From: Psilocybe cubensis
Lineage: Eukaryota
Assembly (NCBI GenBank): GCA_017499595.2
Contig: CM039008.1
Location: 1 to 64,000, forward strand
Direction: 5' to 3'
Length of the DNA stretch: 64,000 bases
The notes beneath the pieces were generated by a model. The model did no database searches. It worked only from the letters and a program-made list of their open reading frames with translations, and was not told the origin of the DNA. Below, piece by piece: positions 1 to 49,735 of this stretch; the first letter of the stretch is position 1; each line of letters begins with the position of its first letter. Both the position numbers and the translations under genes were made by a program.

Positions 1-246
1 TAAACCCTAAACCCTAAACCCTAAACCCTAAACCCTAAACCCTAAACCCTAAACCCTAAACCCTAAACCCTAAACCCTAAACCCTAAACCCTAAACCCTA
101 AACCCTAAACCCTAAACCCTAAACCCTAAACCCTAAACCCTAAACCCTAAACCCTAAACCCTAAACCCTAAACCCTAAACCCTAAACCCTAAACCCTAAA
201 CCCTAAACCCTAAACCTAAACCCTAAACCCTAAACCCTAAACCCTA
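1..246 (+). repeat. Terminal telomeric tract (TAAACCC)n = (TTTAGGG)n; left chromosome end
   Basis: About 35 near-perfect 7-mer repeats from base 1, C-rich strand on +. Confidence 0.97.
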
Positions 247-807
247 ACCTAACCCCAACCCTAAGCTAACTAAGTCTAACCTTAGTAGGAAGTAAGGTAG
301 GCGTGTGAACTTCCGAACGGCATGTGATTGTGAAGGGCCGGATCTAATTTAGTACATGGGAAAAGTTACTTAGTACTTCGGGAAAAGTTCCTTAGTACCG
401 TGGAAACATTTTTGATGGACCGGATCATGAACTGTCCAATTAAGATTCACAACAATCAATCATTCTATTGTTTGATTGTTAGGTAAGGACCCAGGTAAGC
501 TATTTATACTCTAGACATGTGAATATTCCCATGTCGCGGTTACTCGGAGCCACGTAACCAGAGTAATCTATATCCATGTGATTCACATCACAGTCAATAA
601 CCCACGATGTCAAAGAACAAAAGTGTTGGATCCACTTTTGACAGGTTACCATGTGCCACATCGACCCGTGACACTCTGTTCATCAGAGACCTGTCTAACT
701 TGACAATAAACATTGACAGATTTGTGATAGTCGGTAAGATACATGACAGCTGCGCAGCATCACTTCACGCGCTGTCATCGGATGTCTAGAACATTCCTTC
801 TAAGAAT

Positions 808-1801
808 AGCCACTGAAGAGTCTATAAAGACGAAAGGGCTGGTTGTTGGGATCCCCCAACAGCCCTCAAGTACTCGTCCTCTCCCAAACTCCTGCCGCTT
901 GTGCCTTCCCAACTCATCCGGGAGCCCTTTCGTCACTGATCTTGCCCTTGACTCGGGGACGTTTCATCGACATGTTGGCTGCCTCACGGCAAGCGGGGCC
1001 CTTTTTCTTTCACTCGCTCACGCCTTCTATGTTGGGTTACGGAGGTCATACAAACTCGTTTTAGTCTAGCTGCGGGGATATCCAGCTATGATGACTTTGT
1101 AATTCGAGGGCGCGCAGTTCTTCAATGGGTATGGACATCAGGTGAGAGTACACTGGGGGTTGTCAGGACCAGCTCTGCTGGATACGCTCCTGGCAAGTCG
1201 GTTGCAGCCGGCGACACTACCGAATTGCTGGGACGTCCTAAAGCTTGTGGGTACCGCCGACCGCTGGAAACAGCCTAGGCACCGGTGGCGACCGGGTATG
1301 GTAACAATCCCCAAGATTCAGCGAAAGCTGGAATGGATAATCAGCAGCGAATCCGTAACGGTCACGCCGACGGAAGCGTTCAACGACTAGGTGGTAGTGG
1401 GGTCTTCGGATCTTAAGATATAGTCTTGGGAGTGGGGAAACCCACATCTGGTATCTAAACCGCGCCTCGCTGCTTACGAGGACGGCCCGAAGTCCAGAAC
1501 CGCTTAAAACGCGGGTGACCCGGCCTCCCCTTAGTAAAGGGAGTTAACACAAGGATGGACAAATAGTTCGTCGCCGGAAATGAACCTGTGGCTGTAATGG
1601 CTGATGTGGCGCCCCTTGGTAAAGGGCTTAAAGGGTATTAGCCTGCCATGTCCAATGGCATGAGAGTGTCCCTTGGTAAAGGACTTAATAGGCAATAGCC
1701 TGCTCTTTTGTCATGAGCGGTATGTAGTGATCGTTTGCCTGTACGGTAGCGCCCATTGCTTGCACTGGTCCACGCCCGTAAAAAATCACGAGCCGCTGGC
1801 C
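808..1801 (+). ncRNA. Type I hammerhead ribozyme split by a group I intron (halves 808-866 and 1796-1801)
   Basis: AGCCA-CTGAAGA-GTCT ataa AGAC-GAAA-GGGCTG...CAGCCC-T | intron | C-TGGC; the joined halves equal the intact copy at 6154-6218. Confidence 0.9.
867..1795 (+). ncRNA. Group I intron, IC1-like, 929 nt, no homing endonuclease (copy A)
   Basis: Upstream exon ends in U866 and intron ends in G1795. P AATTGCTGGGA about 1223, Q AATCAGCAGC 1339-1348, R GTTCAACGACTA about 1378-1389, S AAGATATAGTC 1415-1425. P3 CACTACC 1215-1221/GGTAGTG 1393-1399, P7 GACTA/TAGTC, P5b GCTG-GAAA-CAGC, P9 GTGGG-GAAA-CCCAC, IGS GGGGTTGT 1156-1163. Confidence 0.92.
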
Positions 1802-1909
1802 TTCTTTCTATTTCAAACTCACAGTTTAAACTAGTCGCTCGCACCTCGCTTCGCTCGGTGCTCGCTCCCCCCCTAAACCCAACGACTTTGCTATCACCCA
1901 TCAGTTACC

Positions 1910-3068
1910 ATGTCATCCCAATACTCTGCTGCATTCTCTCGTGCCATGTCCCCTACCCTGGACGCACTCACCCAGGCCGTCGTCAACAACACTGTCTTCG
2001 GCGTCAACGATGAAGCAGGCCGCCATAACGCTCTTATCGACGAGCTGGCCACTGTGGTCATCAAAAAAATAGCTGAGTGCCGCTCCGTTGACCAAGTCAT
2101 AGACTGCGTCTTTTTTGACTATCGTGCTGCCCTCAGGGAGTTTCTCCTCAACCTCGCATCGTGGTGCGACAAGAGGGAAACAGTCAAGGCTAGCCTCGAG
2201 CGCCTTGAATCTGCCGTTAGCGCAGGCAACACGCCCAATCGCCTTAAGGTGAAGGCACCCGAGTTCCAACTTACGAAGGAATTCGCGGATGCCGGGTCAG
2301 CGGAGGCTCTTCGAGTCTCCACTACGTTCTCTTCCGCTCGTGATGCCTTCCAAAAGGCAATTAACGACGGCGCCGTTCAGGCGAAAAAGGACGAGCTGGC
2401 TTTTTGGGATGATAAATGCGCACTCAACTCTTGCTACGAAGCTGCTGCCCTCATCGTTAAGGCAACTTACGATGATCGCAAATCCAGCTACAAGCTCCCT
2501 GTTTTCTCTACAGACAACAAGGGAGTTCGACGTATAGCAGAGTGGGTAGTGTCTCCGCAAAAGAAAGCCGAATGCAGTGCGCTGCAAACTATACTGCCGG
2601 CGATCTTTTCTCATATCAAACAGATTGTCAACATGCGCCACCGCGCCTTGGCAATTAAGATTGAGAAAAAGCGGACGACTGCGGCAACAGCCGATGTCGA
2701 GATGGCCGATGCGACCAAACCAGGTCCATCGATTCAATCCCTTATTGATAAGGGCTTGAATGCACGTCTCAAAAAGCTCAACCTTGGATCTGTGGGCAAG
2801 AAGGCAAGTTTTCGTAACCCTTCACCCATAATTCTGGACACTAATTATTACTCTAATTACCCAGACTTTGTCTGGCCAGAATTCGTCCAAGGCTCCTCAA
2901 CCTCAGGCCAGGAAAGCTGGCCCTTCGAAACCCAAGTCGTCGTCGACGCCTTCGCAGAGGAAGCCTCAAACCAAGGCTTCCAACAAGGTCGACAACAAGA
3001 AGAAAGGGAAGGGGAGAGCTCCCGTCAAGAACAACGATCCAAAGGGAAAGGGAAAGGCAAGAGCCTAG
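1910..3068 (+). CDS. Predicted spliced ORF1 isoform (exons 1910-2803 + 2865-3068, about 365 aa) with a Lys-rich C-terminal tail
   Basis: Removing the GC-AG intron joins ...VGKK to TLSGQNSSKAPQ...KGKGKARA*; substitutions between copies are synonymous in this frame. Confidence 0.72.
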
Positions 3069-5443
3069 ACGCGCGGTCTACTGTAGCATCATTTACGTCG
3101 GTGAGACCCGCCTTCCCCAACTCTATTCCTGACGATATACTCACCATGACTAAAACAGACGCAGTTTCTTTTGTACACCTCAATACCCCGATTTCATTCT
3201 TATTGGCTGGCCAGTATAGATCTAGTGTACACTGTAGTCCTGGTGTTTCGGTCCCTGTTGATGTAGCAAATGATTTATCTCTTGGACTCAATTATATGTT
3301 TTTTACACTGCCTTCTAAAAATCTGATCATGCAAGCATGGAATGATTTTCAACGAAGAATAAGATGGCGTATCTATTTTTTGTTTAAAGAAGGCATGAAT
3401 AAACCTTTCGATCCAGACTATGGAGTAAGCTCTAAAAAGAAAGAGAAACCTCCAATGTTACCGCAATTTATGGAACTTGGCCTTTCAATGGGACGTCGGT
3501 ACGTTATTAAAACGATCGCAAGTATCCCGGAAGAAGCCCTTAAAGAGATGCGAAAGCACGCGTTCTCTCCTAAAAGGGACAAGATCCAAAAGTTTCTTTT
3601 CGATAACAACTATGTTATTACGATGACAGATAAGAATCTTGGCCTCGCGGTGTCTGAACGCGACTGGATATTAAGGAATGAGCTCAATCTTCTTGAAGAT
3701 GAACGCAACTACGAAGAGTTAGAATTCGAAGTTGCGCAAGAAGTTATGAAGAGCAAAATGATTCAGATGCAAACTCTCGCACGTACCGTCGAAGATGAAC
3801 ATCTGTTTCTATTTGAACTTGGGTTGTCTCGATTCTTTCTATCGAATGTACCGGAAGACGGATCATCGTTCAAGTATCCTCAATTTCATGGTATACCTAA
3901 AATCCACAAGAAACCTACTGGATTTAGGCCCATAATTCCGTGTCACTCTGTAGTATTTAATCCTGCAGCCAAGTTTGTATCAAAAGAGCTTAAGCCGATT
4001 ATTAAATCGACTCCTTCAATCATTCACGGAACGAAGGATCTCTTTACGAGATTAAGCCAATTGCGTATAGACCCCAAACGACAATGGTATTTTGTCACCG
4101 GGGATGTAGTTGCTTTCTATCCCAATATTCCGTTGGACTTGTGCATCGAAATCGTTTGTAATATGTACGAGGAATGGTTACTCAACGCTTCGGAAGAGAA
4201 CACTGCATTAGCCCATATTAATCCAAATTCGTTAGAGAATAACTTGGTTAAATTGGGCATCTTTAAACGTGCTATCGAGATTGGCAATACGCAATTGATA
4301 ACACAACATGGGTCTAGATATTTTAGACAAAAAAATGGCCTCGCAATGGGCGTCGCGGATTCTCCGGACCTTGCTAACCTCTTTGGAGCCCATTTTGAAA
4401 TAAAGTCAAAAATCTTAGACCACCCAAACGTGGCCTTCTATGGAAGGTACATCGACGATTGTTTCGCAATTGTTTACGCCGAGTCCGAAGCACTTGCACT
4501 TAATCTTATTAAAGAAACAATAAAGTTCGATGGTTGTGTTATCGAATGGGCTGTTTCCTCGTCGGGATGTCAATTTCTCGATGCTTTCATATTCAAGGAG
4601 TCTGGAAAACTTCATTGGAAGCCATTTGTCAAGACAGGAAACAACCGAGAACGAGTTCCATGGGTATCACATCATCCTTTGGACGTCAAACGTGGCGTCT
4701 ACATTGGAGAGTTATCCAGGTTAGCCGTGCTATGTAGTACCAAGGAAATCTACATCGGAGCAATTAGAGACCTTAACGCTCTCTATTTGATGCGCGGTTA
4801 TCCCGAAAACCTAGTCATGTCTTGGTGTAAGAAGAATATACAAGAACGTTGGGAAAAGCGATTCGCTTTACGAGTCGCAGAGCACGACGAATCCATTCTT
4901 GTACTTAAAACCAGATTTGATCAGGTATGGAATTGGTTTTCAGCTGCTGAACTTGGAAAGACTGTTACCGAGTACTGGTCGGCATGGTATGAACATGCCG
5001 AGAAAGGTCTGTATAGTGCAGACTCGTCCAGACCCCTTATCAAACCAGATCCAAATTACGTTCACGACCTCGATGATGTTCGCCCGGAGCTGTTCACACA
5101 GATCCTCGTGGACGGAGAAACTGAGTTCGTACCGGATTTGAGGAAGATAGGACTACTCGGAAGTCGTTGGATAGTATCGCGAAAGCGCAATACTAATCTT
5201 TTCGACCTTGCAAATGTGTGGAAGAAAACAGTTTTTCGTAAACTGGATGAAGACATTGCCGAAAAAGGTGGTGTTGTTCCCGAAACTCAAAACGTTAATG
5301 AAACTTATCATTCTGCTCTAGTTGAAGCTGCTGAACAGATAAGTATCGAAAGTGATAACGAGATAATACTTCATAGACGTTCAATCTCACAAGAGAGGGA
5401 ACATCCAGAATTCGGCAGAATATCCAAATCTTACAACCGATGA
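1910..5443 (+). CDS. Penelope-like reverse transcriptase polyprotein (1177 aa), no recognisable GIY-YIG endonuclease
   Basis: RT motifs GIPKIHK, FRPII, GDVVAFYPNI, QKNGLAMG, RYIDD, FLD; helical N-terminal region. Confidence 0.93.
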   Translation: MSSQYSAAFSRAMSPTLDALTQAVVNNTVFGVNDEAGRHNALIDELATVVIKKIAECRSVDQVIDCVFFDYRAALREFLLNLASWCDKRETVKASLERLESAVSAGNTPNRLKVKAPEFQLTKEFADAGSAEALRVSTTFSSARDAFQKAINDGAVQAKKDELAFWDDKCALNSCYEAAALIVKATYDDRKSSYKLPVFSTDNKGVRRIAEWVVSPQKKAECSALQTILPAIFSHIKQIVNMRHRALAIKIEKKRTTAATADVEMADATKPGPSIQSLIDKGLNARLKKLNLGSVGKKASFRNPSPIILDTNYYSNYPDFVWPEFVQGSSTSGQESWPFETQVVVDAFAEEASNQGFQQGRQQEEREGESSRQEQRSKGKGKGKSLDARSTVASFTSVRPAFPNSIPDDILTMTKTDAVSFVHLNTPISFLLAGQYRSSVHCSPGVSVPVDVANDLSLGLNYMFFTLPSKNLIMQAWNDFQRRIRWRIYFLFKEGMNKPFDPDYGVSSKKKEKPPMLPQFMELGLSMGRRYVIKTIASIPEEALKEMRKHAFSPKRDKIQKFLFDNNYVITMTDKNLGLAVSERDWILRNELNLLEDERNYEELEFEVAQEVMKSKMIQMQTLARTVEDEHLFLFELGLSRFFLSNVPEDGSSFKYPQFHGIPKIHKKPTGFRPIIPCHSVVFNPAAKFVSKELKPIIKSTPSIIHGTKDLFTRLSQLRIDPKRQWYFVTGDVVAFYPNIPLDLCIEIVCNMYEEWLLNASEENTALAHINPNSLENNLVKLGIFKRAIEIGNTQLITQHGSRYFRQKNGLAMGVADSPDLANLFGAHFEIKSKILDHPNVAFYGRYIDDCFAIVYAESEALALNLIKETIKFDGCVIEWAVSSSGCQFLDAFIFKESGKLHWKPFVKTGNNRERVPWVSHHPLDVKRGVYIGELSRLAVLCSTKEIYIGAIRDLNALYLMRGYPENLVMSWCKKNIQERWEKRFALRVAEHDESILVLKTRFDQVWNWFSAAELGKTVTEYWSAWYEHAEKGLYSADSSRPLIKPDPNYVHDLDDVRPELFTQILVDGETEFVPDLRKIGLLGSRWIVSRKRNTNLFDLANVWKKTVFRKLDEDIAEKGGVVPETQNVNETYHSALVEAAEQISIESDNEIILHRRSISQEREHPEFGRISKSYNR
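2804..2864 (+). other. Putative 61-nt GC-AG spliceosomal intron inside the RT ORF (also 8909-8969, 15111-15171, 20830-20890, 26797-26857)
   Basis: AAG|GCAAGT donor, CTAAT branch-like motifs, CCCAG| acceptor; typical fungal intron size. Confidence 0.72.
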
Positions 5444-5556
5444 AAAGAATACTAGCGCGTAAGGCGTAAAGCATTAGAAAAAAACCCTAACCGTAAGTAT
5501 TCCTTGCTATAAAGTAACAAACATCTACTTACAAGCAACACTTTGGATTAAATAGC

Positions 5557-5630
5557 TAAACCTAAACCCTAAACCCTAAACCCTAAACCCTAACCTAACC
5601 CCAACCCTAAGCTAACTAAGTCTAACCTTA
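5557..5630 (+). repeat. Element-internal telomere-like block (TAAACCC x4-5 grading into TAACCTAACCCCAACCCTAAGCTAAC)
   Basis: Same block between the 3' UTR and pLTR in every copy that spans this region. Confidence 0.85.
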
Positions 5631-6153
5631 GTAGGAAGTAAGGTAGGCGTGTGAACTTCCGAACGGCATGTGATTGTGAAGGGCCGGATCTAATTTAGTA
5701 CATGGGAAAAGTTACTTAGTACTTCGGGAAAAGTTCCTTAGTACCGTGGAAACATTTTTGATGGACCGGATCATGAACTGTCCAATTAAGATTCACAACA
5801 ATCAATCATTCTATTGTTTGATTGTTAGGTAAGGACCCAGGTAAGCTATTTATACTCTAGACATGTGAATATTCCCATGTCGCGGTTACTCGGAGCCACG
5901 TAACCAGAGTAATCTATATCCATGTGATTCACATCACAGTCAATAACCCACGATGTCAAAGAACAAAAGTGTTGGATCCACTTTTGACAGGTTACCATGT
6001 GCCACATCGACCCGTGACACTCTGTTCATCAGAGACCTGTCTAACTTGACAATAAACATTGACAGATTTGTGATAGTCGGTAAGATACATGACAGCTGCG
6101 CAGCATCACTTCACGCGCTGTCATCGGATGTCTAGAACATTCCTTCTAAGAAT

Positions 6154-6218
6154 AGCCACTGAAGAGTCTATAAAGACGAAAGGGCTGGTTGTTGGGATCC
6201 CCCAACAGCCCTCTGGCC
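6154..6218 (+). ncRNA. Intact type I hammerhead ribozyme (predicted cleavage after C6213)
   Basis: Stem I GCCA/TGGC, core CTGAAGA, stem II GTCT-ataa-AGAC, GAAA, stem III GGGCTG/CAGCCC, NUH = CUC. Confidence 0.92.
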
Positions 6219-6290
6219 TTCTTTCTATTTCAAACTCACAGTTTAAACTAGTCGCTCGCACCTCGCTTCGCTCGGTGCTCGCTCCCCCCC

Positions 6291-6353
6291 TAAACCCTAA
6301 ACCCTAAACCCTAAAACCTAAACCTAAACCCTAAACCCTAAACCCTAAACCCT
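6291..6353 (+). repeat. Telomeric repeats between copies A and B
   Basis: (TAAACCC)n with variants. Confidence 0.9.
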
Positions 6354-6974
6354 AACCTAACCCCAACCCTAAGCTAACTAAGTCTAACCTTAGTAGGAAG
6401 TAAGGTAGGCGTGTGAACTTCCGAACGGCATGTGATTGTGAAGGGCCGGATCTAATTTAGTACATGGGAAAAGTTACTTAGTACTTCGGGAAAAGTTCCT
6501 TAGTACCGTGGAAACATTTTTGATGGACCGGATCATGAACTGTCCAATTAAGATTCACAACAATCAATCATTCTATTGTTTGATTGTTAGGTAAGGACCC
6601 AGGTAAGTTATTTATACTCTAGACATGTGAATATTCCCATGTCGCGGTTACTCGGAGCCACGTAACCAGAGTAATCTATATCCATGTGATTCACATCACA
6701 GTCAATAACCCACGATGTCAAAGAACAAAAGTGTTGGATCCACTTTTGACAGGTTACCATGTGCCACATCGACCCGTGACACTCTGTTCATCAGAGACCT
6801 GTCTAACTTGACGATAAACATTGACAGATTTGTGATAGTCGGTAAGATACATGACAGCTGCGCAGCATCACTTCACGCGCTGTCATCGGATGTCTAGAAC
6901 ATTCCTTCTAAGAATAGCCACTGAAGAGTCTATAAAGACGAAAGGGCTGGTTGTTGGGATCCCCCAACAGCCCT

Positions 6975-7903
6975 CAAGTACTCGTCCTCTCCCAAACTCC
7001 TGCCGCTTGTGCCTTCCCAACTCATCCGGGAGCCCTTTCGTCACTGATCTTGCCCTTGACTCGGGGACGTTTCATCGACATGTTGGCTGCCTCACGGCAA
7101 GCGGGGCCCTTTTTCTTTCACTCGCTCACGCCTTCTATGTTGGGTTACGGAGGTCATACAAACTCGTTTTAGTCTAGCTGCGGGGTTATCCAGCTATGAT
7201 GACTTTGTAATTCGAGGGCGCGCAGTTCTTCAATGGGTATGGACATCAGGTGAGAGTACACTGGGGGTTGTCAGGACCAGCTCTGCTGGATACGCTCCTG
7301 GCAAGTCGGTTGCAGCCGGCGACACTACCGAATTGCTGGGACGTCCTAAAGCTTGTGGGTACCGCCGACCGCTGGAAACAGCCTAGGCACCGGTGGCGAC
7401 CGGGTATGGTAACAATCCCCAAGATTCAGCGAAAGCTGGAATGGATAATCAGCAGCGAATCCGTAACGGTCACGCCGACGGAAGCGTTCAACGACTAGGT
7501 GGTAGTGGGGTCTTCGGATCTTAAGATATAGTCTTGGGAGTGGGGAAACCCACATCTGGTATCTAAACCGCGCCTCGCTGCTTACGAGGACGGCCCGAAG
7601 TCCAGAACCGCTTAAAACGCGGGTGACCCGGCCTCCCCTTAGTAAAGGGAGTTAACACAAGGATGGACAAATAGTTCGTCGCCGGAAATGAACCTGTGGC
7701 TGTAATGGCTGATGTGGCGCCCCTTGGTAAAGGGCTTAAAGGGTATTAGCCTGCCATATCCAATGGCATGAGAGTGTCCCTTGGTAAAGGACTTAATAGG
7801 CAATAGCCTGCTCTTTTGTCATGAGCGGTATGTAGTGATCGTTTGCCTGTACGGTAGCGCCCATTGCTTGCACTGGTCCACGCCCGTAAAAAATCACGAG
7901 CCG
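6975..7903 (+). ncRNA. Group I intron in hammerhead (copy B)
   Basis: 929 nt, same U/G boundaries and core as 867-1795. Confidence 0.92.
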
Positions 7904-8014
7904 CTGGCTACTTTCCATTTAACTCCCAGTTTAAACTAGTCGCTCGCACCTCGCTTCGCTCGGTGCTCGCTCCCCCCCTAAACCCAACGACTTTGCTATT
8001 ATCCATCAGCCACT

Positions 8015-11000
8015 ATGTCATCTCAATACTCTGCTGCTTTCTCTCGTGCCATGTCCCCCACCCTGGACGCACTCACCCAGGCCGTCGTCAACAACACCGT
8101 TTTCGGCGTCAACGATGAAGCAGGCCGCCATAACGCTCTGATCGACGAGCTGGCCACTGTGGTCATCAAAAAAATAGCTGAGTGCCGCTCCGTTGACCAA
8201 GTCATAGACTGCGTCTTTTTTGACTATCGTGCTGCCCTTAGGGAGTTTCTCCTCAACCTCGCATCGTGGTGCGATAAGAGGGAAACAGTCAAGGCTAGCC
8301 TCGAGCGCCTTGAATCTGCCGTTAGCGCAGGCAACACGCCCAATCGCCTTAAGGTGAAGGCACCCGAGTTCCAACTTACGAAGGAATTCGCGGATGCCGG
8401 GTCAGCGGAGGCTCTTCGAGTCTCCACTACGTTCTCTACCGCTCGTGACGCCTTCCAAAAGGCAATTAACGACGGCGCCATTCAGGCGAAAAAGGACGAG
8501 CTGACTTTTTGGGATGATAAATGCGCACTCAACTCTTGCTACGAAGCTGCTGCCCTCATCGTTAAGGCAACTTACGATGATCGCAAATCCAGCTACAAGC
8601 TCCCTGTTTTCTCTACAGATAACAAGGGAGTTCGACGTATAGCAGAGTGGGTAGTGTCTCCGCAAAAGAAAGCCGAATGCAGTGCGCTGCAAACCATACT
8701 GCCGGCGATCTTTTCTCACATCAAACAAATTGTCAACATGCGCCACCGCGCTTTGGCAATTAAGATTGAGAAAAAGCGGACGACTGCGGCAACAGCCGAT
8801 GTCGAGATGGCCGACGCGACCAAACCAGGTCCGTCGATTCAATCCCTTATTGATAAGGGCTTGAATGCACGTCTCAAGAAGCTCAACCTTGGATCTGTGG
8901 GCAAGAAGGCAAGTTTTCGTAACCCTTCACCCATAATTCTGGATACTAATTACTACTCTAATTACCCAGACTTTGTCTGGCCAGAATTCGTCCAAGGCTC
9001 CTCAACCTCAGGCCAAGAAAGCTGGCCCTTCGAAACCCAAGTCGTCGTCGACGCCTTCGCAACGCAAGCCTCAAACCAAGGCTTCCAACAAGGTCGACAA
9101 CAAGAAGAAAGGGAAGGGGAGAGCTCCCGTCAAGAACGATCCAAAGGGAAAGGGAAAGGCAAGAGCCTAGATGCGCGGTCTAATGTAGTACCTTTTACGT
9201 CGGTGAGACCCGCCTTCCCCAACTCTATTCCTGACGATATACTCACCATGACTAAAACAGACGCAGTTTCTTTCGTACACTTACATACTCCAATATCATT
9301 CTTGTTGGCTGGCCAGTATCGTAGTAGTGTACATTGTAGTCCTGGTGTTTCTGTCCCTGTTGATGTAGCAAACGATCTCTCTCTCGGACTTAATTATATG
9401 TTTTTCACTCTGCCTTCTAAAAGTCTGATCATGCAAGCATGGAATGATTTCCAACGAAGAATAAGATGGCGTATCTATTTTTTGTTTAAGGAAGGCATGA
9501 ATAAACCTTTTGATCCAGATTATGGAGTAAGCTCAAAAAAGAAAGAGAAACCTCCTGTATTACCGCAATATATGGAACTTGGCCTTTCGATGGGACGTCG
9601 GTACGTGCAACGCACGATCGCAAGTATCCCGGAAGAAGCCCTTACGGAGATGCGAAAGCACGCGTTCTCTCCTAAAAGGGACAAGATCCGTAAGTTTCTT
9701 ATCGATAACAACTATGTTATTACGATGACAGATAAGAATCTTGGCCTCGCGGTGTCTGAACGCGACTGGATATTAAGGAATGAGCTCAATCTTCTTGAAG
9801 ATGAACGTAATTACGAAGAGTTAGAATTCGAAGTTGCGCAAGAAGTTATGAAGAGCAAAATGATTCAGATGCAAACGCTCGCACGTACTGTCGAAGATGA
9901 ACATCTGTTTCTATTTGAACTTGGGTTGTCTCGATTCTTTCTATCGAATGTACCGGAAGACGGATCATCGTTCAAGTATCCTCAATTTCATGGTATACCT
10001 AAAATCCACAAGAAACCTACTGGATTTAGGCCCATAATTCCGTGTCACTCTGTAGTATTTAATCCTGCAGCCAAGTTTGTATCAAAAGAGCTTAAGCCGA
10101 TTATTAAATCGACTCCTTCAATCATACACGGAACGAAGGATCTCTTTACGAGATTAAGCCAATTGCGTATAGACTCCAAAAGACAATGGTATTTTGTCAC
10201 TGGAGATGTAGTTGCTTTCTATCCCAATATTCCGTTGGACTTGTGCATCGAAATCGTTTGTAGTATGTACGAGGAATGGTTACTCAACGCTTCGGAAGAA
10301 AACACTGCATTAGCCCATATTAATCCAAATTCGTTAGAGAATAACTTGGTTAAATTGGGCATCTTTAAACGTGCTATCGAGATTGGCAATACGCAATTGA
10401 TAACACAACATGGGTCTAGATATTTTAGACAAAAAAATGGCCTCGCAATGGGCGTCGCGGATTCTCCGGACCTTGCTAACCTCTTTGGAGCCCATTTTGA
10501 AATAAAGTCAAAAATCTTAGACCACCCAAACGTGGCCTTCTATGGAAGGTACATCGACGATTGTTTCGCAATTGTTTACGCCGAGTCCGAAGCACTTGCA
10601 CTTAATCTTATTAAAGAAACAATAAAGTTCGATGGTTGTGTTATCGAATGGGCTGTTTCCTCGTCGGGATGTCAATTTCTCGATGCTTTCATATTCAAGG
10701 AGTCTGGAAAACTTCATTGGAAGCCTTTTGTCAAGACAGGAAACAACCGAGAACGAGTTCCATGGGTATCACATCATCCTTTGGACGTCAAACGTGGCGT
10801 CTACATTGGAGAGTTATCCAGGTTAGCCGTGCTATGTAGTACCAAGGAAATCTACATCGGAGCAATTAGAGACCTTAACGCTCTCTATTTGATGCGCGGT
10901 TATCCCGAAAACCTAGTCATATCTTGGTGTAAGAAGAATATACAAGAACGTTGGGAAAAGCGATTCGCTTTACGAGTCGCAGAGCACGACGAATCCATTC

Positions 11001-11545
11001 TTGTACTTAAAACCAGATTTGATCAGGTATGGAATTGGTTTTCAGCTGCTGAACTTGGAAAAACTGTTACCGAGTACTGGTCGGCATGGTATGAACATGC
11101 CGAGAAAGGTTTGTATAGTGCAGACTCGTCCAGACCCCTTATCAAACCAGATCCAAATTACGTTCACGACCTCGATGATGTTCGCCCGGAGCTGTTCACA
11201 CAGATCCTCGTGGACGGAGAAACTGAGTTCGTACCGGATTTGAGGAAGATAGGACTACTCGGAAGTCGTTGGATAGTATCGCGAAAACGCAATACTAATC
11301 TTTTCGACCTTGCAAATGTGTGGAAGAAAACAGTCTTTCGTAAACTGGATGAAGACATCGCTGAAAAAGGTGGTGTTGTTCCCGAAACTCAAAACGTTAA
11401 TGAAACTTATCATTCTGCTTTAGTTGAAGCTACTGAGCAGATAAGTATCGAAAGTGATAACGAGATAATACTTCATAGACGTTCAATCTCACAAGAGAGG
11501 GAACATCCAGAATTTGGCAGAATATCCAAATCTTACAACCGATGA
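8015..11545 (+). CDS. Penelope-like RT polyprotein (1176 aa), intact
   Basis: Same RT motifs as copy A. Confidence 0.93.
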   Translation: MSSQYSAAFSRAMSPTLDALTQAVVNNTVFGVNDEAGRHNALIDELATVVIKKIAECRSVDQVIDCVFFDYRAALREFLLNLASWCDKRETVKASLERLESAVSAGNTPNRLKVKAPEFQLTKEFADAGSAEALRVSTTFSTARDAFQKAINDGAIQAKKDELTFWDDKCALNSCYEAAALIVKATYDDRKSSYKLPVFSTDNKGVRRIAEWVVSPQKKAECSALQTILPAIFSHIKQIVNMRHRALAIKIEKKRTTAATADVEMADATKPGPSIQSLIDKGLNARLKKLNLGSVGKKASFRNPSPIILDTNYYSNYPDFVWPEFVQGSSTSGQESWPFETQVVVDAFATQASNQGFQQGRQQEEREGESSRQERSKGKGKGKSLDARSNVVPFTSVRPAFPNSIPDDILTMTKTDAVSFVHLHTPISFLLAGQYRSSVHCSPGVSVPVDVANDLSLGLNYMFFTLPSKSLIMQAWNDFQRRIRWRIYFLFKEGMNKPFDPDYGVSSKKKEKPPVLPQYMELGLSMGRRYVQRTIASIPEEALTEMRKHAFSPKRDKIRKFLIDNNYVITMTDKNLGLAVSERDWILRNELNLLEDERNYEELEFEVAQEVMKSKMIQMQTLARTVEDEHLFLFELGLSRFFLSNVPEDGSSFKYPQFHGIPKIHKKPTGFRPIIPCHSVVFNPAAKFVSKELKPIIKSTPSIIHGTKDLFTRLSQLRIDSKRQWYFVTGDVVAFYPNIPLDLCIEIVCSMYEEWLLNASEENTALAHINPNSLENNLVKLGIFKRAIEIGNTQLITQHGSRYFRQKNGLAMGVADSPDLANLFGAHFEIKSKILDHPNVAFYGRYIDDCFAIVYAESEALALNLIKETIKFDGCVIEWAVSSSGCQFLDAFIFKESGKLHWKPFVKTGNNRERVPWVSHHPLDVKRGVYIGELSRLAVLCSTKEIYIGAIRDLNALYLMRGYPENLVISWCKKNIQERWEKRFALRVAEHDESILVLKTRFDQVWNWFSAAELGKTVTEYWSAWYEHAEKGLYSADSSRPLIKPDPNYVHDLDDVRPELFTQILVDGETEFVPDLRKIGLLGSRWIVSRKRNTNLFDLANVWKKTVFRKLDEDIAEKGGVVPETQNVNETYHSALVEATEQISIESDNEIILHRRSISQEREHPEFGRISKSYNR

Positions 11546-12260
11546 AAAGAATACTAGCGCTTAAGGCGTAAAGCATTAGAAAAAAACCCTAACCGTAAGT
11601 ATTCCTTGCTATAAAGTAACAAACATCTACTTACAAGCAACACATTGGATTGAATAGCTAAACCTAAACCTAAACCCTAAACCCTAAACCCTAAACCCTA
11701 ACCTAACCCCAACCCTAAGCTAACTAAGTCTAACCTTAGTAGGAAGTAAGGTAGGCGTGTGAACTTCCGAACGGCATGTGATTGTGAAGGGCCGGATCTA
11801 ATTTAGTACATGGGAAAAGTTACTTAGTACTTCGGGAAAAGTTCCTTAGTACCGTGGAAACATTTTTGATGGACCGGATCATGAACTGTCCAATTAAGAT
11901 TCACAACAATCAATCATTCTATTGTTTGATTGTTAGGTAAGGACCCAGGTAAGTTATTTATACTCTAGACATGTGAATATTCCCATGTCGCGGTTACTCG
12001 GAGCCACGTAACCAGAGTAATCTATATCCATGTGATTCACATCACAGTCAATAACCCACGATGTCAAAGAACAAAAGTGTTGGATCCACTTTTGACAGGT
12101 TACCATGTGCCACATCGACCCGTGACACTCTGTTCATCAGAGACCTGTCTAACTTGACGATAAACATTGACAGATTTGTGATAGTCGGTAAGATACATGA
12201 CAGCTGCGCAGCATCACTTCACGCGCTGTCATCGGATGTCTAGAACATTCCTTCTAAGAA

Positions 12261-12327
12261 TAGCCACTGAAGAGTCTATAAAGACGAAAGGGCTGGTTGT
12301 TGGGATCCCCCAACAGCCCTCTGGCTA
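12261..12327 (+). ncRNA. Intact hammerhead ribozyme (copy B 3' pLTR)
   Basis: Same core; stem I TAGCCA/TGGCTA. Confidence 0.9.
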
Positions 12328-13175
12328 CTTTCCATTTAACTCCCAGTTTAAACTAGTCGCTCGCACCTCGCTTCGCTCGGTGCTCGCTCCCCCCCTAAAC
12401 CCTAACCCTAAACCCTAAAACCCTAGCGCGTAAGGCGTAAAGCATTAGAAAAAAACCCTAACCGTAAGTATTCCTTGCTATAAAGTAACAAACATCTACT
12501 TACAAGCAACACTTTGGATTAAATAGCTAAACCTAAACCCTAAACCCTAAACCCTAAACCCTAACCTAACCCCAACCCTAAGCTAACTAAGTCTAACCTT
12601 AGTAGGAAGTAAGGTAGGCGTGTGAACTTCCGAACGGATGTGATTGTGAAGGGCCGGATCTAATTTAGTACATGGGAAAAGTTACTTAGTACTTCGGGAA
12701 AAGTTCCTTAGTACCGTGGAAACATTTTTGATGGACCGGATCATGAACTGTCCAATTAAGATTCACAACAATCAATCATTTGATTGTTAGGTAAGGACCC
12801 AGGTAAGCTATTTATACTCTAGACATGTGAATATTCCCATGTCGCGGTTACTCGGAGCCACGTAACCAGAGTACTCTATATCCATGTGATTCACATCACA
12901 GTCAATAACCCACAATGTCAAAGAACAAAAGTGTTGGATCCACTTTTGACAGGTTACCATGTGCCACATCGACCCGTGACACTCTGTTCATCAGAGATCT
13001 GTCTAACTTGACAATAAACATTGACAGATTTGTGATAGTCGGTAAGATACATGACAGCTGCGCAGCATCACTTCACGCGCTGTCATCGGATGTTCCAGAA
13101 CATTCCTTCTAAGAATAGCCACTGAAGAGTCTATAAAGACGAAAGGGCTGGCTGCTGATAACAATCAACAGCCCT

Positions 13176-14104
13176 CAAGTACTCGTCCTCTCCCAAACTC
13201 CTGCCGCTTGTGCCTTCCCAACTCATCCGGGAGCCCTTTCGTCACTGATCTTGCCCTTGACTCGGGGACGTTTCATCGACATGTTGGCTGCCTCACGGCA
13301 AGCGGGGCCCTTTTTCTTTCACTCGCTCACGCCTTCTATGTTGGGTTACGGAGGTCATACAAACTCGTTTTAGTCTAGCTGCGGGGTTATCCAGCTATGA
13401 TGACTTTGTAATTCGAGGGCGCGCAGTTCTTCAATGGGTATGGACATCAGGTGAGAGTACACTGGGGGTTGTCAGGACCAGCTCTGCTGGATACGCTCCT
13501 GGCAAGTCGGTTGCAGCCGGCGACACTACCGAATTGCTGGGACGTCCTAAAGCTTGTGGGTACCGCCGACCGCTGGAAACAGCCTAGGCACCGGTGGCGA
13601 CCGGGTATGGTAACAATCCCCAAGATTCAGCGAAAGCTGGAATGGATAATCAGCAGCGAATCCGTAACGGTCACGCCGACGGAAGCGTTCAACGACTAGG
13701 TGGTAGTGGGGTCTTCGGATCTTAAGATATAGTCTTGGGAGTGGGGAAACCCACATCTGGTATCTAAACCGCGCCTCGCTGCTTACGAGGACGGCCCGAA
13801 GTCCAGAACCGCTTAAAACGCGGGTGACCCGGCCTCCCCTTAGTAAAGGGAGTTAACACAAGGATGGACAAATAGTTCGTCGCCGGAAATGAACCTGTGG
13901 CTGTAATGGCTGATGTGGCGCCCCTTGGTAAAGGGCTTAAAGGGTATTAGCCTGCCATGTCCAATGGCATGAGAGTGTCCCTTGGTAAAGGACTTAATAG
14001 GCAATAGCCTGCTCTTTTGTCATGAGCGGTATGTAGTGATCGTTTGCCTGTACGGTAGCGCCCATTGCTTGCACTGGTCCACGCCCGTAAAAAATCACGA
14101 GCCG
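13176..14104 (+). ncRNA. Group I intron in hammerhead (copy C)
   Basis: 929 nt, same boundaries and core. Confidence 0.92.
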
Positions 14105-14216
14105 CTGGCCTTCTTTCCATTTAACTCACAGTTTAAACAAGTCGCTCGCACCTCGCTTCGCTCGGTGCTCGCTCCCCCCCTAAACCCAACGACTTTGCTA
14201 TTACCCAACAGCTACT

Positions 14217-17200
14217 ATGTCTTCCACTTACTCTGCTGCCTTCTCTCGTGCCATGTCCCCCACCCTGGACGCACTCACCCAGGCTGTCGTCAACAACACA
14301 GTTTTTGGCGTCAACGACGAAGCTGGCCGCCACAACGCCCTCATCGACGAGTTGGCCACTGTCGTCATCAAGAAAATAGCTGAGTGCCGCTCCATTGACC
14401 AGATTGTAGACTGCGTCTTTTTTGACTATCGTGCTGCCCTTAGGGAGTTTCTCCTCAACCTCGCATCGTGGTGCGATAAGAGGGAAACAGTCAAGGCTAG
14501 CCTCGAGCGCCTTGAACTTGCCGTTAGCGCAGGCAACACCCCCAATCGCCTTCGGGTGAAGGCTCCCGAGTTCCAACTTACGAAGGAATTCGCGGATGCC
14601 GGGTCAGCGGAAGCTCTTCGAGTTTCCTCTACGTTCTCCACCGCTCGTGATGTCTTCCAAAAGGCAATCAACGACGGCGCCATTCAGGCGAAAAAGGACG
14701 AACTGGCCTTTTGGGATGATAAATGCGCACTCAATAACTGTTATGAAGCTGCTGCCCTCATCGTTAAGACAACTTACGATGATCGCAAATCCAGCTATAA
14801 GCTCCCCGTTTTCTCTACAGACAACAAGGGAGTTCGTCGAATAACAGATTGGGTAGTGTCACCGCAGAAGAAGGCTGAATGCAGCGCATTGCAAACCATT
14901 TTGCCAGCCATCTTCTCTCATATCAAACAGATTGTCAACTTGCGCCACCGCGCTTTGGCAATCAAGATTGAGAAAAAGCGGTCGACTGCGGCAACAGCCG
15001 ATGTCGAGATGGCCGATGCGACCAAACCAGGTCCATCGATTCAATCCCTTATTGATAAGGGCTTGAATGCACGTCTCAAGAAGCTCAACCTTGGATCTGT
15101 GGGCAAGAAGGCAAGTTCTCGTAACCCTTCACCCATAACTCTGGATACTAATTACTATTCTAATTACCCAGACTTTGTCTGGCCAGAATTCGTCCAAGGC
15201 TCCTCAACCTCAGGCCAAGAAAGCTGGCCCTTCGAAATTCAAACCCTCGTCGACGCCTTCGCAGAAGAAGCCCCAAACCAAGGCTTCCAACAAGGTCGAC
15301 AACAAGAAGAAAGGGAAGGGGAGAGCTCCCGTCAAGAACGATCCAAAGGGAAAGGGAAAGGCAAGAGCCTAGACGCGCGGTCTAATGTAGTACCTTTTAC
15401 GTCGGTAAGACCCGCCTTCCCCAACTCTATTCCTGACGATATACTCACCATGACTAAAACAGACGCAGTTTCTTTTGTACACTTACATACGCCGATCTCA
15501 TTCTTGTTGGCTGGCCAGTATCGTAGTAGTGTACACTGTAGTCCTGGTGTGGTGGTCCCTGTAGATATAGCAAATGATTTGTCACTCGGACTCAATTATA
15601 TGTTTTTTACTCTACCTTCTCAAAGTCTGATCATGCAAGCATGGAATGATTTTCAACGAAGAATAAGATGGCGTATCTATTTTTTGTTTAAGGAAGGCAT
15701 GAACAAACCTTTTGATCCAGATTACGGAGTAAGCTCAAAAAAGAAAGAGAAACCTCCAGTATTACCGCAATACATGGAACTTGGCCTTTCGATGGGACGT
15801 CGGTACGTGCAACGCACGATCGCAAGTATCCCGGAAGAAGCCCTTACGGAGATGCGAAAGCACGCGTTCTCTCCTAAAAGGGACAAGATCCGTAAGTTTC
15901 TTATCGATAACAACTATGTTATTACGATGACAGATAAGAATCTTGGCCTCGCGGTGTCTGAACGCGACTGGATATTAAGGAATGAGCTCAATCTTCTTGA
16001 AGATGAACGTAACTATGAAGAGTTAGAATTCGAAGTTGCGCAAGAAGTAATGAAGAGCAAAATGATCCAGATGCAAACTCTTGCACGTACCGTCGAAGAT
16101 GAACATCTGTTTCTATTTGAACTTGGGTTGTCTCGATTCTTTCTATCGAATGTACCGGAAGACGGATCATCGTTCAAGTACCCTCAATTTCATGGTATAC
16201 CTAAAATCCACAAAAAACCTACTGGATTTAGGCCCATAATTCCGTGTCACTCTGTAGTATTTAATCCTGCAGCCAAGTTTGTATCAAAAGAGCTTAAGCC
16301 GATTATTAAATCGACTCCTTCAATCATTCACGGAACGAAGGATCTCTTTACGAGATTAAGCCAATTGCGTATAGACCCCAAACGACAATGGTATTTTGTC
16401 ACCGGGGATGTAGTTGCTTTCTATCCCAATATTCCGTTGGACTTGTGCATCGAAATCGTTTGTAATATGTACGAGGAATGGTTACTCAACGCTTCGGAAG
16501 AAAACACTGCATTAGCCCATATTAATCCAAATTCGTTAGAGAATAACTTGGTTAAATTGGGCATCTTTAAACGTGCTATCGAGATTGGCAATACGCAATT
16601 GATAACACAACATGGGTCTAGATATTTTAGACAAAAAAAATGGCCTCGCAATGGGCGTCGCGGATTCTCCGGACCTTGCTAACCTCTTTGGAGCCCATTT
16701 TGAAATAAAGTCAAAAATCTTAGACCACCCAAACGTGGCCTTCTATGGAAGGTACATCGACGATTGTTTCGCAATTGTTTACGCCGAGTCCGAAGCACTT
16801 GCACTTAATCTTATTAAAGAAACAATAAAGTTCGATGGTTGTGTTATCGAATGGGCTGTTTCCTCGTCGGGATGTCAATTTCTCGATGCTTTCATATTCA
16901 AGGAGTCTGGAAAACTTCATTGGAAGCCATTTGTCAAGACAGGAAACAACCGAGAACGAGTTCCATGGGTATCACATCATCCTTTGGACGTCAAACGTGG
17001 CGTCTACATTGGAGAGTTATCCAGGTTAGCCGTGCTATGTAGTACCAAGGAAATCTACATCGGAGCAATTAGAGACCTTAACGCTCTCTATTTGATGCGC
17101 GGTTATCCCGAAAACCTAGTCATGTCTTGGTGTAAGAAGAATATACAAGAACGTTGGGAAAAGCGATTCGCTTTACGAGTCGCAGAGCACGACGAATCCA

Positions 17201-17748
17201 TTCTTGTACTTAAAACCAGATTTGATCAGGTATGGAATTGGTTTTCAGCTGCTGAACTTGGAAAAACTGTTACCGAGTACTGGTCGGCATGGTATGAACA
17301 TGCCGAGAAAGGTTTGTATAGTGCAGACTCGTCCAGACCCCTTATCAAACCAGATCCAAATTACGTTCACGACCTCGATGATGTTCGCCCGGAGCTGTTC
17401 ACACAGATCCTCGTGGACGGAGAAACTGAGTTCGTACCGGATTTGAGGAAGATAGGACTACTCGGAAGTCGTTGGATAGTATCGCGAAAACGCAATACTA
17501 ATCTTTTCGACCTTGCAAATGTGTGGAAGAAAACAGTCTTTCGTAAACTGGATGAAGACATCGCTGAAAAAGGTGGTGTTGTTCCCGAAACTCAAAACGT
17601 TAATGAAACTTATCATTCTGCTTTAGTTGAAGCTGCTGAACAGATAAGTATCGAAAGTGATAACGAGATAATACTTCATAGACGTTCAATCTCACAAGAG
17701 AGGGAACATCCAGAATTCGGCAGAATATCCAAATCTTACAACCGATGA
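14217..17748 (+). pseudogene. Penelope-like RT ORF with a +1 frameshift (extra A in the run at about 16633-16640)
   Basis: GACAAAAAAAATGG has 8 A against 7 in other copies; ORF splits into 821 + 378 aa; could be a homopolymer sequencing error. Confidence 0.75.
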
Positions 17749-18457
17749 AAAGAATACTAGCGCGTAAGGCGTAAAGCATTAGAAAAAAACCCTAACCGTA
17801 AGTATTCCTTGCTACAAAGTAACAAACATCTACTTACAAGCAACACATTGGATTAAATAGCTAAACCTAAACCTAAACCCTAAACCCTAAACCCTAAGCC
17901 CTAACCTAACCCCAACCCTAAGCTAACTAAGTCTAACCTTAGTAGGAAGTAAGGTAGGCGTGTGAACTTCCGAAAGGCATGTGATTGTGAAGGGCCGGAT
18001 CTAATTTAGTACATGGGAAAAGTTACTTAGTACCTCGGGAAAAGTTCCTTAGTACCGTGGAAACATTTTTGATGGACCGGATCATGAACTGTCCAATTAA
18101 GATTCACAACAATCAATCAATTGATTGTTAGGTAAGGACCCAGGTAAGCTATTTATACTCTTGACATGAGAATATTCCCATGTCACGGTTACTCGGAGCC
18201 ACGTAACCAGAGTATTTTATATCCATGTGATTCACATCACAGTCAATAACCCACGATGTCAAAGAACAAAAGTGTTGGATCCACTTTTGACAGGTTACCA
18301 TGTGCCACATCGACCCGTGACACTCTGTTCATCAGAGATCTGTCTAACTTGACAATAAACATTGACAGATTTGTGATAGTCGGTAAGATACATGACAGCT
18401 GCGCAGCATCACTTCACGCGCTGTCATCGGATGTTCCAGAACATTCCTTCTAAGAAT

Positions 18458-18522
18458 AGCCACTGAAGAGTCTATAAAGACGAAAGGGCTGGCTGCTGAT
18501 AACAATCAACAGCCCTCTGGCC
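18458..18522 (+). ncRNA. Intact hammerhead ribozyme (copy C 3' pLTR)
   Basis: Same core; variant stem III extension TGAT-aaca-ATCA. Confidence 0.9.
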
Positions 18523-18592
18523 TTCTTTCCATTTAACTCACAGTTTAAACAAGTCGCTCGCACCTCGCTTCGCTCGGTGCTCGCTCCCCCCC

Positions 18593-18705
18593 TAAACCCT
18601 AAACCCTAAACCCTTAACCCTAAACCCTAAACCCTAAACCCTAAACCCTAAACCCTAAACCCTAAACCCTAAACCCTAAACCCTAAACCCTAAACCCCTA
18701 AACCC
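18593..18705 (+). repeat. Interstitial telomeric tract
   Basis: About 16 TAAACCC units. Confidence 0.93.
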
Positions 18706-23500: not shown

Positions 23501-24309
23501 AAAAAAACCCTAACCGTAAGTATTCATTGCTATAAAGTAACAAACATCTACTTACAAGCAACACATTGGATTAAATAGCTAAACCTAAACCTAAACCCTA
23601 AACCCTAAACCCTAAGCCCTAACCTAACCCCAACCCTAAGCTAACTAAGTCTAACCTTAGTAGGAAGTAAGGTAGGCGTGTGAACTTCCGAACGGCATGT
23701 GATTGTGAAGGGCCGGATCTAATTTAGTACATGGGAAAAGTTACTTAGTACTTCGGGAAAAGTTCCTTAGTACCGTGGAAACATTTTTGATGGACCGGAT
23801 CATGAACTGTCCAATTAAGATTCACAACAATCAATCAATTGATTGTTAGGTAAGGACCCAGGTAAGCTATTTATACTCTTGACATGTGAATATTCCCATG
23901 TCGCGGTTACTCGGAGCCACGTAACCAGAGTAATCTATATCCATGTGATTCACATCACAGTCAATAACCCACGATGTCAAAGAACAAAAGTGTTGGATCC
24001 ACTTTTGACAGGTTACCATGTGCCACATTGACCCGTGACACTCTGTTCATCAGAGACCTGTCTAACTTGACAATAAACATTGACAGATTTGTGATAGTCG
24101 GTAAGATACATGACAGCTGCACAGCATCACTTCACGCGCTGTCATCGGATGTCTAGAACATTCCTTCTAAGAATAGCCACTGAAGAGTCTATAAAGACGA
24201 AAGGGCTGGTTGTTGGTACCCCCCAACAGCCCTCTGGCCTTCTTTCCATTTAACTCACAGTTTAAACAAGTCGCTCGCACCTCGCTTCGCTCGGTGCTCG
24301 CTCCCCCCC
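20518..24309 (+). mobile_element. 5'-truncated copy E (ORF remnant to 23466; intact hammerhead 24175-24239)
   Basis: Starts at AAGCTCCCCG (KLPVF) after telomeric tract 20460-20517. Confidence 0.92.
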
Positions 24310-24365
24310 TAAACCCTAAACCCTAAACCCTAAACCCTAAACCCTAAACCCTAAACCCTAAACCC

Positions 24366-49684: not shown

Positions 49685-49735
49685 TAAACCCTAAACCCTA
49701 AACCCTAAACCCTAAACCCTAAAACCTAACCCTAA
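49685..49735 (+). repeat. Interstitial telomeric tract
   Basis: TAAACCC x5 plus degenerate units. Confidence 0.88.

Follow-up and report, generated by a model that had tools for sequence, protein, structure and literature searches.

A group I intron lodged in the hammerhead ribozyme of telomeric Penelope-like retroelements of Psilocybe cubensis

The pseudo-long terminal repeats (pLTRs) of the retroelements known as Penelope-like elements (PLEs) carry hammerhead ribozymes, and a PLE RNA that is cut and ligated into a circle was proposed in 2014 as the template for reverse transcription over more than one unit (Cervera and de la Pena, PMC4209133). For hammerheads of fungal PLEs that have a large helix III, activity as monomers is described, the one from Serpula lacrymans showing a kobs of 0.16 per min at 1 mM Mg and of 1.97 per min at 10 mM Mg (PMC4209133), and endonuclease-less PLEs form the Athena and Coprina clades as described in PMC8557442. 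Retrozymes are built from direct repeats that each hold a hammerhead, and their self-cleaved ends can be joined by tRNA ligase; they measure 170 to 1000 nucleotides (nt), contain no open reading frame (ORF), and have been seen as circles (PMC7761336). Nuclear group I introns, in the passages concerned, are stated to be restricted to ribosomal DNA (rDNA) (PMC8395846, PMC9223047, PMC4167309), and reverse splicing has been put forward as the way in which those of fungal rDNA spread (PMC1299323). The locus described here lies within the first 64,000 nt (forward strand) of contig CM039008.1 of Psilocybe cubensis (assembly GCA_017499595.2), a stretch referred to below as the window. It is best explained as an array of Penelope-like retroelements at a telomere, endonuclease-less and probably Coprina-type, with a group I intron lodged in the pLTR hammerhead. 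The layout is confirmed and unusual: among the papers and passages found on group I introns in connection with PLEs, hammerheads, telomeres, or retroelements, none describes an intron resident in such an element, although one may still have been published, and the pertinent passages of PMC4209133 likewise mention none, using the term only for the origin of the GIY-YIG endonuclease. An earlier reading of the same DNA by a model (the sequence-only reading) had proposed that group I back-splicing or hammerhead ligation would convert the element RNA into a unit-length circle; this is a reasonable prediction, the hammerhead half of which had already been proposed.

The left end of the window is formed by 30 copies of TAAACCC on the C-rich strand (terminal telomere repeats (TAAACCC)n, 1-244, + strand), which identifies it as a chromosome end. 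The terminal repeat is of the TTTAGGG type, and its final block (211-244), TAAACC(TAAACCC)4, is the signature of the element's internal telomere block. Approximately 12 retroelement insertions follow head to tail, all on the + strand, from 245 to about 33,950, plus one segment at 48,805-49,719. The reverse transcriptase (RT) ORF of the first insertion (1910-5443, + strand) comprises 1177 amino acids (aa). A Pfam scan of this protein returned 0 families. At E ≤ 0.001, 236 relatives were found among 7981 scored candidates; the top matches are 97-99% identical and named at their source as Psilocybe cubensis proteins, and many of the relatives carry a precomputed PF00078 annotation, with PF28514 and PF26215 also occurring among the homologues. 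Like Athena and Coprina elements, the retroelement is situated at a chromosome end, carries reverse-complement telomere repeats at its 3′ end, and has a hammerhead nearby. In its telomeric position, its orientation, the telomere-complementary 3′ repeats, and the hammerhead in the flanking repeat, it matches the endonuclease-less PLEs as these are portrayed in the pertinent parts of PMC8557442 and PMC4209133; the clade name Coprina, which rests on host and layout, is provisional.

Insertion 1 begins with part a of the upstream pLTR (245-866, + strand), which contains the hammerhead core, helix II, and helix III and ends with U866, corresponding to hammerhead position U16.1. All features of a type I hammerhead can be read from the sequence, i.e., CUGAAGAG, a helix II with UCU/AGA, CGAAA, a 10-bp helix III, and a U-C cleavage site; in the upstream copy the core CUGAAGAG is located at 813, and helix III is formed by GGGCUGGUUG and CAACAGCCC (10 bp). 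Helix I (4+5 bp), in which UGGCC...UUCUU pairs with AAGAAUAGCCA, is present in the uninterrupted copies only. Comparison with 13 uninterrupted pLTR copies sets the limits of the intron at 867-1795 (929 nt, + strand, terminal base G1795), flanked by U866 and C1796. The intron is thus positioned between U16.1 and C17, 1 nt 5′ of the predicted cleavage site, and as long as it is present, helix I is without its 3′ strand and cannot form. With respect to the type I fold, the large helix III, the occurrence in both flanking repeats, and the predicted unit RNA and possible circle, these hammerheads agree with those of PLEs, the large helix III being that of fungal telomere-associated PLEs, as far as the latter are set out in PMC4209133; they differ in that a group I intron splits the upstream one, which is predicted to work only after splicing.

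The catalytic core of the intron (P2-P9, 1151-1447, + strand) matches the Rfam family RF00028 with 70.9 bits, and both other copies in the array do so with 73 bits, the gathering score being 50. As is the rule for group I introns, the 5′ exon ends in a U (U866), which pairs with G1156, and the last intron base is a G. The internal guide sequence GGGGUUGU (1156-1163, + strand) is the sole site inside the intron that pairs at 8/8 positions (Watson-Crick and G-U) with ACAGCCCU (859-866, + strand), the 8 nt with which the 5′ exon ends; the + strand of the 64-kb window holds 6 such 8/8 partner sites, including 3 in intron copies. The 3′ strand of hammerhead helix III therefore doubles as the 5′ strand of P1. 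Through C867-G1155 and A868-U1154, P1 reaches 10 bp, followed by a 6-bp GUACUC/GAGUAC helix that, in the predicted fold, closes the P1-loop insertion (867-1155, + strand, 289 nt) next to P1. The core is IC1-like and has a P5abc-type region, the periphery carries large insertions, and the intron lacks any ORF big enough for a homing endonuclease: no overlapping ORF exceeds 108 aa, and the longest one begins outside the intron. An IC1-like core, peripheral insertions, and no need for a homing endonuclease are likewise characteristic of nuclear rDNA group I introns in the parts of PMC8395846, PMC9223047, and PMC4167309 that deal with them. In contrast to those, the window intron resides not in rDNA but in the pLTR of a telomeric retroelement, and in contrast to twin-ribozyme introns, the second ribozyme is the host hammerhead around the intron and not one within it. 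The intron closes with a 3′ extension (1448-1795, + strand) of repeated UUGGUAAAGG hairpins, which ends in G1795 and is partly conserved in intron 1 of the distant relative L078 (see below). Compensatory changes, i.e., changes on both sides with pairing kept, occur in 35 of the 69 predicted core pairs across five related cores (that of the window, two from L078, and one each from L033 and L035), a small sample whose structure was predicted on the same alignment; they indicate that the core is under selection. Two further roles considered for the intron were discarded. The search for a second ribozyme in the 289-nt and 348-nt extensions yielded a single weak Rfam match to suhB (E = 0.11), and masking of the priming site by pairing of the intron with pLTR part b was no better predicted (duplex -70.0) than for shuffled sequences (mean -74.5).

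The intron is followed by pLTR part b (1796-1875, + strand), whose first base, C1796, is hammerhead C17 and which consists, in this order, of the helix I 3′ strand UGGCC...UUCUU, a hairpin with the loop CUCGCUUCGCUCG, and CCCCCCC-TAAACCC, the likely priming site. Next come the ORF unit (1876-5562, + strand) with a 34-nt leader, the RT ORF, and the 3′ untranslated region (3′UTR), then the internal telomere block TAAACC(TAAACCC)4 (5557-5590, + strand), and finally a downstream pLTR without intron (5591-6292, + strand), which has an intact hammerhead and shows 0 differences from the upstream pLTR flanks. In this downstream copy, the hammerhead core is located at 6159, the target at 6205-6212, and C17 at C6213, with the cut predicted between 6213 and 6214. 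The sequence-only reading had called attention to the recurrence of the guide's target downstream, and ACAGCCCU plus C is indeed found uninterrupted at 6205-6213; it had placed the guide about 280 nt from the 5′ splice site, the measured distance to the guide start being 289 nt. Its size of about 4.4 kb for the unit agrees with the 4,417 nt computed either for a join of U6212 to C1796 or for the monomer. The monomer that it expected after cis-splicing is borne out at the level of sequence, as both hammerheads would then be intact and bound the 4,417-nt unit, and in relatives the hammerhead lies 5′ of the ORF in 27/27 cases. The single TAAACCC priming site that it assigned to the unit had to be given up, since there are two telomere-complementary sites, TAAACCC at 1869-1875 and TAAACC(TAAACCC)4 at 5557-5590. 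With regard to duplex energy, P1 plus its extension reaches -29.9 kcal/mol at the cis site versus -22.7 kcal/mol for the best duplex at the downstream site, and core P1 by itself -15.7 versus -14.3 kcal/mol. The intron looks functional and, judged by these modelled pairings, adapted to cis-splicing at its own splice site.

From the anatomy, the pairings, the intron distribution, the flank identity, and the conservation in relatives, we infer the following mode of operation. Cis-splicing would join U866 to C1796 and thereby rebuild the upstream hammerhead, which would then cut between C1796 and U1797, the downstream one cutting at the site given above. The two cuts would release a unit-length RNA of 4,417 nt, with a 5′-OH and a 2′,3′-cyclic phosphate as its ends, that comprises the leader, the ORF, the 3′UTR, the internal telomere block, and pLTR part a. 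New DNA copies would start at the TAAACCC beside part b, with reverse transcription spanning more than one unit; the pLTR copied first would always be intron-free, and the second would often be copied from unspliced RNA. We assign a probability of roughly 50% to this reading, in which a cis-splicing intron and two hammerheads give a 4,417-nt unit RNA that is copied over more than one unit from the TAAACCC site. Several observations weigh against it. The hammerhead matches fall under the Rfam gathering scores, with 25.3 versus 56.3 bits for the RAGATH-1 hammerhead model (E = 0.089, whole-length alignment, uninterrupted copy only) and 19.5 versus 48.5 bits for Hammerhead_3. The P1 target is also part of the helix III hairpin (-17.0 kcal/mol), so that splicing at either site may be slow. 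The three intron-bearing copies share one array and are perhaps not fully independent. Finally, the first-copied pLTR is intron-free in 12/12 cases, yet the flanks of the second one are identical to it, which the proposed mode of operation does not explain by itself.

Two more insertions of identical layout occupy 6353-18613 (+ strand), with introns at 6975-7903 and 13176-14104; they are separated from insertion 1 by telomere repeats that extend up to the next insertion and include the internal block of the next unit (6291-6352, + strand). Altogether, 3 of 16 pLTR target sites are interrupted (at 867, 6975, and 13176). The intron is present in 3/4 pLTRs located immediately 5′ of a full-length ORF unit and in 0/12 insertion-terminal pLTRs, a distribution with a hypergeometric chance of 4/560 = 0.007, assuming independent copies. 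The claim that the intron occurs in 5′ repeats only fits its absence from all 12 terminal pLTRs and is qualified by the full-length copy at 25177-30278, whose 5′ pLTR is intron-free. For copy 3 it applies in part: the interrupted pLTR precedes an ORF but at the same time serves as the 3′ repeat of a truncated unit (12423-12561), of which a 111-nt 3′UTR remnant (12423-12533) and a telomere block are left. The ORFs are intact (1176-1177 aa) in copies 1 and 2 and in the intron-free copy, and the ORF of the third intron-bearing copy is broken into 821 aa + 378 aa (14217-17748).

The intron copies differ at 2 of 929 columns (99.8-99.9% identity), and the ORF units share 95.7-97.0% identity; copy-specific variants of the flanks persist within 10-14 nt on either side of the intron. 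In contigs of sequencing run X2, the intron appears within yet another (third) variant of the flanks, with a depth roughly 1/10 that of the ORF, contig depth being only a rough guide. By these sequence comparisons the intron is mobile, and its precise insertion without an endonuclease suggests reverse splicing into element RNA followed by reverse transcription by the element's own enzyme. Three other runs, taken as RNA by guess and with contigs placed on 245-5590, do not cover the intron: the three short contigs of run X1 fall on the ORF and on pLTR part a together with the internal telomere block, and runs X5 and X6 gave one contig each with the uninterrupted junction and pLTR part b. The X5 and X6 contigs (window 1816-1877) begin 3-6 nt 5′ of the hammerhead cut and continue with 255 nt unlike the ORF unit, which may represent other cargo behind the same leader.

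The structure of the insertions indicates how they were made. All 12 of 12 terminate in pLTR part b plus telomere repeats and vary in their 5′ truncation points, which points to a start of reverse transcription at the TAAACCC beside part b. Four continue through a full ORF unit to a second pLTR, and the junction pLTRb-TAAACCC-AACGAC is identical in 4/4 of these full-length copies. Ahead of the second pLTR stands the internal telomere block in the variant peculiar to that copy, in one case also 111 nt of 3′UTR, so that the template order was cyclic or tandem. The two pLTRs of an insertion do not differ at any position (0 differences) in copy 1, copy 2, or the copy that lacks the intron, compared with 5-25 differing sites between insertions; in copy 3 they match throughout from alignment column 417 onwards and are recombinant upstream of it. 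Accordant with the usual account of PLE pLTRs, both pLTRs of an insertion seem, from these alignments, to derive from one source pLTR per event. Gene conversion as the cause of their identity is unlikely, because the mirrored differences fall mostly in the short, isolated 80-nt part b. The intron was also considered as the recombination joint of copy 3 and discarded, the joint being placed at columns 361-417, about 200 nt upstream of the intron. Since three of the four second-copied pLTRs hold the intron, unspliced RNA appears to have acted as template. Neither a circle nor a simple linear model accounts for an intron-free first pLTR together with an intron-bearing second one that is otherwise identical. 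Copying may have begun on an initiator RNA that was spliced and cut by the hammerhead and then jumped to a sibling that was still unspliced; alternatively, splicing may be reversible on a single template, or the intron may have been gained repeatedly and precisely.

Relatives were sought in metagenome contigs, where 139 of 259 pattern matches were confirmed and 80 loci returned. A strict hammerhead-core pattern is found on the ORF strand in 48 of the 80 loci, and at all 27 loci where this could be measured (27/27) the core is located 131-193 nt 5′ of the inferred ORF start, the corresponding distance in the window being 168 nt after subtraction of the intron. Five contigs contain two hammerheads 4067-4600 nt apart. 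Among contigs of at most 9 kb, 14 of 76 begin and end with exactly the same stretch of 77-139 nt, and six further contigs are permuted, running from the ORF end through a single pLTR to the ORF start. Such cyclic and permuted contigs, which may stem from DNA or RNA, are compatible with a unit that is circular or arranged in tandem; they would also result if repeats were collapsed or if the DNA itself were tandem. No contig ends at hammerhead sites were found in the related contigs, and the break points of the cyclic ones are arbitrary.

Group I motifs are present in 3/80 loci, designated L078, L033, and L035. L078, whose RT is 31% identical, has two RF00028-type matches over threshold (72.8 and 76.5 bits), and those of L033 and L035 are sub-threshold (34.2 and 31.6 bits). 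Intron 1 of L078 belongs to the 5′ pLTR, where it follows the hammerhead at a distance of about 12 nt on the 3′ side, and is absent from the 3′ pLTR; a distant relative thus repeats the 5′-only layout. The L033 contig is cyclic, with a unit of 6576 nt and a single pLTR with intron (438-1540) at the hammerhead position of the window. In L033 and L035 the group I matches lie between the hammerhead and the ORF, the one in L035 (957-1321) 3′ of pLTR part b. A canonical P1 guide was sought in L078 intron 1 and in the L033 intron and found in neither, and these two copies may be decayed. The second L078 intron (8170-9000, core 8344-8657, 76.5 bits) stands between an ATG opening MSS and the remaining RT frame, which is open from 8985 onwards and lacks a start codon; the MSS opening resembles that of the window ORF. 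This intron may split the coding sequence, in which case splicing would be needed for the protein.

Three other explanations have to be weighed against the proposed cis-splicing and double cleavage. If the unit RNA were joined by a fungal tRNA ligase or by the reverse reaction of the hammerhead, a 4,417-nt circle could be copied from the TAAACCC site for more than one turn and so give rise to the pLTRs, as has already been proposed for PLEs (PMC4209133). The identity of same-insertion pLTRs in three full-length copies (1, 2, and the one without intron) as opposed to the 5-25 differing sites between insertions, the lineage-specific telomere block or, once, 111 nt of 3′UTR ahead of the second pLTR with the cyclic or tandem order that this implies, the single TAAACCC at the pLTR-ORF junction in 4/4 copies, and the 14/76 related contigs with matching ends plus the six permuted through one pLTR all fit such a circle. 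However, end-to-end jumps between linear monomers or a tandem read-through RNA would yield identical DNA, contigs may look cyclic through the collapse of pLTR-ORF-pLTR repeats or through tandem DNA, and an intact hammerhead would reopen the circle. In addition, a circle with one intron-free pLTR would not by itself place an intron in the second pass, where 3/4 copies have one, and the portions of the literature that treat full-length PLEs show no circular RNA (PMC4209133, PMC7761336). We regard this route as unlikely, and circular RNA of any origin as no better than a tentative proposition drawn from the genomic layout. Inheritance of the layout as a block, through long read-through transcripts or DNA recombination within the array, with the ribozymes uninvolved and the 5′-only pattern accidental, would be the simplest means of copying it, and both the location of all three intron copies in one array and the recombinant structure of copy 3 are compatible with it. 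Against this stand the copy-specific differences mirrored in both pLTRs, mostly in a part b too short and isolated for gene conversion, the much greater uniformity of the intron compared with the host units, the same asymmetry in the distant L078, and the compensatory changes that reflect selection on the intron core; this explanation is improbable.

Back-splicing, which the sequence-only reading had put forward as a main route, would have the upstream intron use ACAGCCCU at 6205-6212 as 5′ exon and join U6212 to C1796, producing a 4,417-nt exon circle. Group I ribozymes act on substrates supplied in trans, and all steps of such a reaction are known chemistry; moreover, the 3′ splice site is located upstream of a perfect second target, for which core P1 approaches that of the cis site in energy. 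The layout also recalls permuted intron-exon (PIE) constructs, an engineered form of group I circularisation, in that the 3′ splice site precedes the 5′ splice-site sequence in one transcript and exon ligation would close a circle. In PIE, however, the intron is split and there is no cis 5′ splice site, whereas the window intron is whole and has the better site in cis: this site possesses the P1 extension, is 289 nt instead of about 5 kb away, and is transcribed first. Back-splicing would be most likely if transcripts started inside the first 289 nt of the intron, and the insertion 5′ of the guide leaves space for a putative internal transcription start, but such a start could not transmit the full intron and the upstream part a, which are present in all three copies. 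Further points against it are that its intron-less product conflicts with 3/4 copies and that the circle would carry a hammerhead of the active type. As a main route it is thus not upheld; on the modelled energies, back-splicing onto the downstream target is chemically possible, yet unlikely, and at most a side reaction. Note that the back-splice junction equals both the cis-splice junction and the genomic 3′ pLTR over about 700 nt, so that short reads cannot detect the event. Two routes would lead to a natural circle by way of the intron, namely a back-spliced 4,417-nt circle or a reversible 5′-exon exchange giving an intron-holding circular precursor of 5,346 nt (867-6212). Forward and reverse splicing on the single pLTR of a circle would explain an intron-free first and an intron-bearing, identical second pLTR; that the intron circularises the element RNA in nature, with the telomerase-related RT copying the circle at the chromosome end for more than one turn and the intron leaving and re-entering a single pLTR, is nevertheless highly improbable, as is the back-spliced exon circle. 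Among the matches listed for natural group I back-splicing, the relevant parts of the literature are reviews of circular RNA, concerned with spliceosomal back-splicing or with engineered systems, and those for permuted introns are engineered systems only.

The proposed cis-splicing and double cleavage would constitute a nested layout in which one ribozyme acts as a switch for another, the hammerhead being predicted to work only after splicing. For the long-proposed spread of introns by reverse splicing, the host retroelement supplies the reverse transcription step that is needed, and precise insertion into at least three flank variants together with near-identical intron copies represents natural evidence for this route. 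The locus also offers a handle on two old questions about PLEs, the purpose of the hammerhead and the origin of the pLTRs and of retained introns. Should a circle be demonstrated, the permuted-intron method by which circular RNA is now made would have its first counterpart in nature.

Compared with retrozymes as covered in PMC7761336, the element shares the direct repeats that each contain a hammerhead and would likewise release, by self-cleavage, a unit whose ends suit a tRNA ligase; it differs in its size of 4.4 kb and in encoding an RT (the unit has an intact 1177-aa RT ORF), and circles are on record for retrozymes only. Nearer to retrozymes in size are pieces at 24180-25800, where five hammerhead cores with spacings of 192, 305, 330, and 730 nt occur in truncated pLTR pieces between telomere repeats; if transcribed, these would give retrozyme-sized hammerhead-to-hammerhead units. 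The hairpin with the conserved loop CUCGCUUCGCUCG is located 77-102 nt 3′ of the hammerhead core in all 16 part b copies (window 1835-1875) and in 19/80 loci, and a C-run plus one telomere-type repeat of the local type is found within about 30 nt of it. This combination resembles a telomerase RNA template with its boundary helix, and the hairpin module may be an RT priming module. Relatives L011, L014, L028, and L034 have TAACCC or TAAACCC repeats in agreement with their own internal sites. At 25100-25180 and 30270-30312, the stop point of several insertions coincides exactly with the 5′ boundary of the internal telomere block, the next part b follows without added repeats, and cDNA of the internal block seems to prime the next insertion directly. 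The lone 5′-truncated copy at 48805-49719, about 15 kb inward of the array and composed of a 3′UTR remnant, a pLTR, and five telomere repeats, may mark a former chromosome end.

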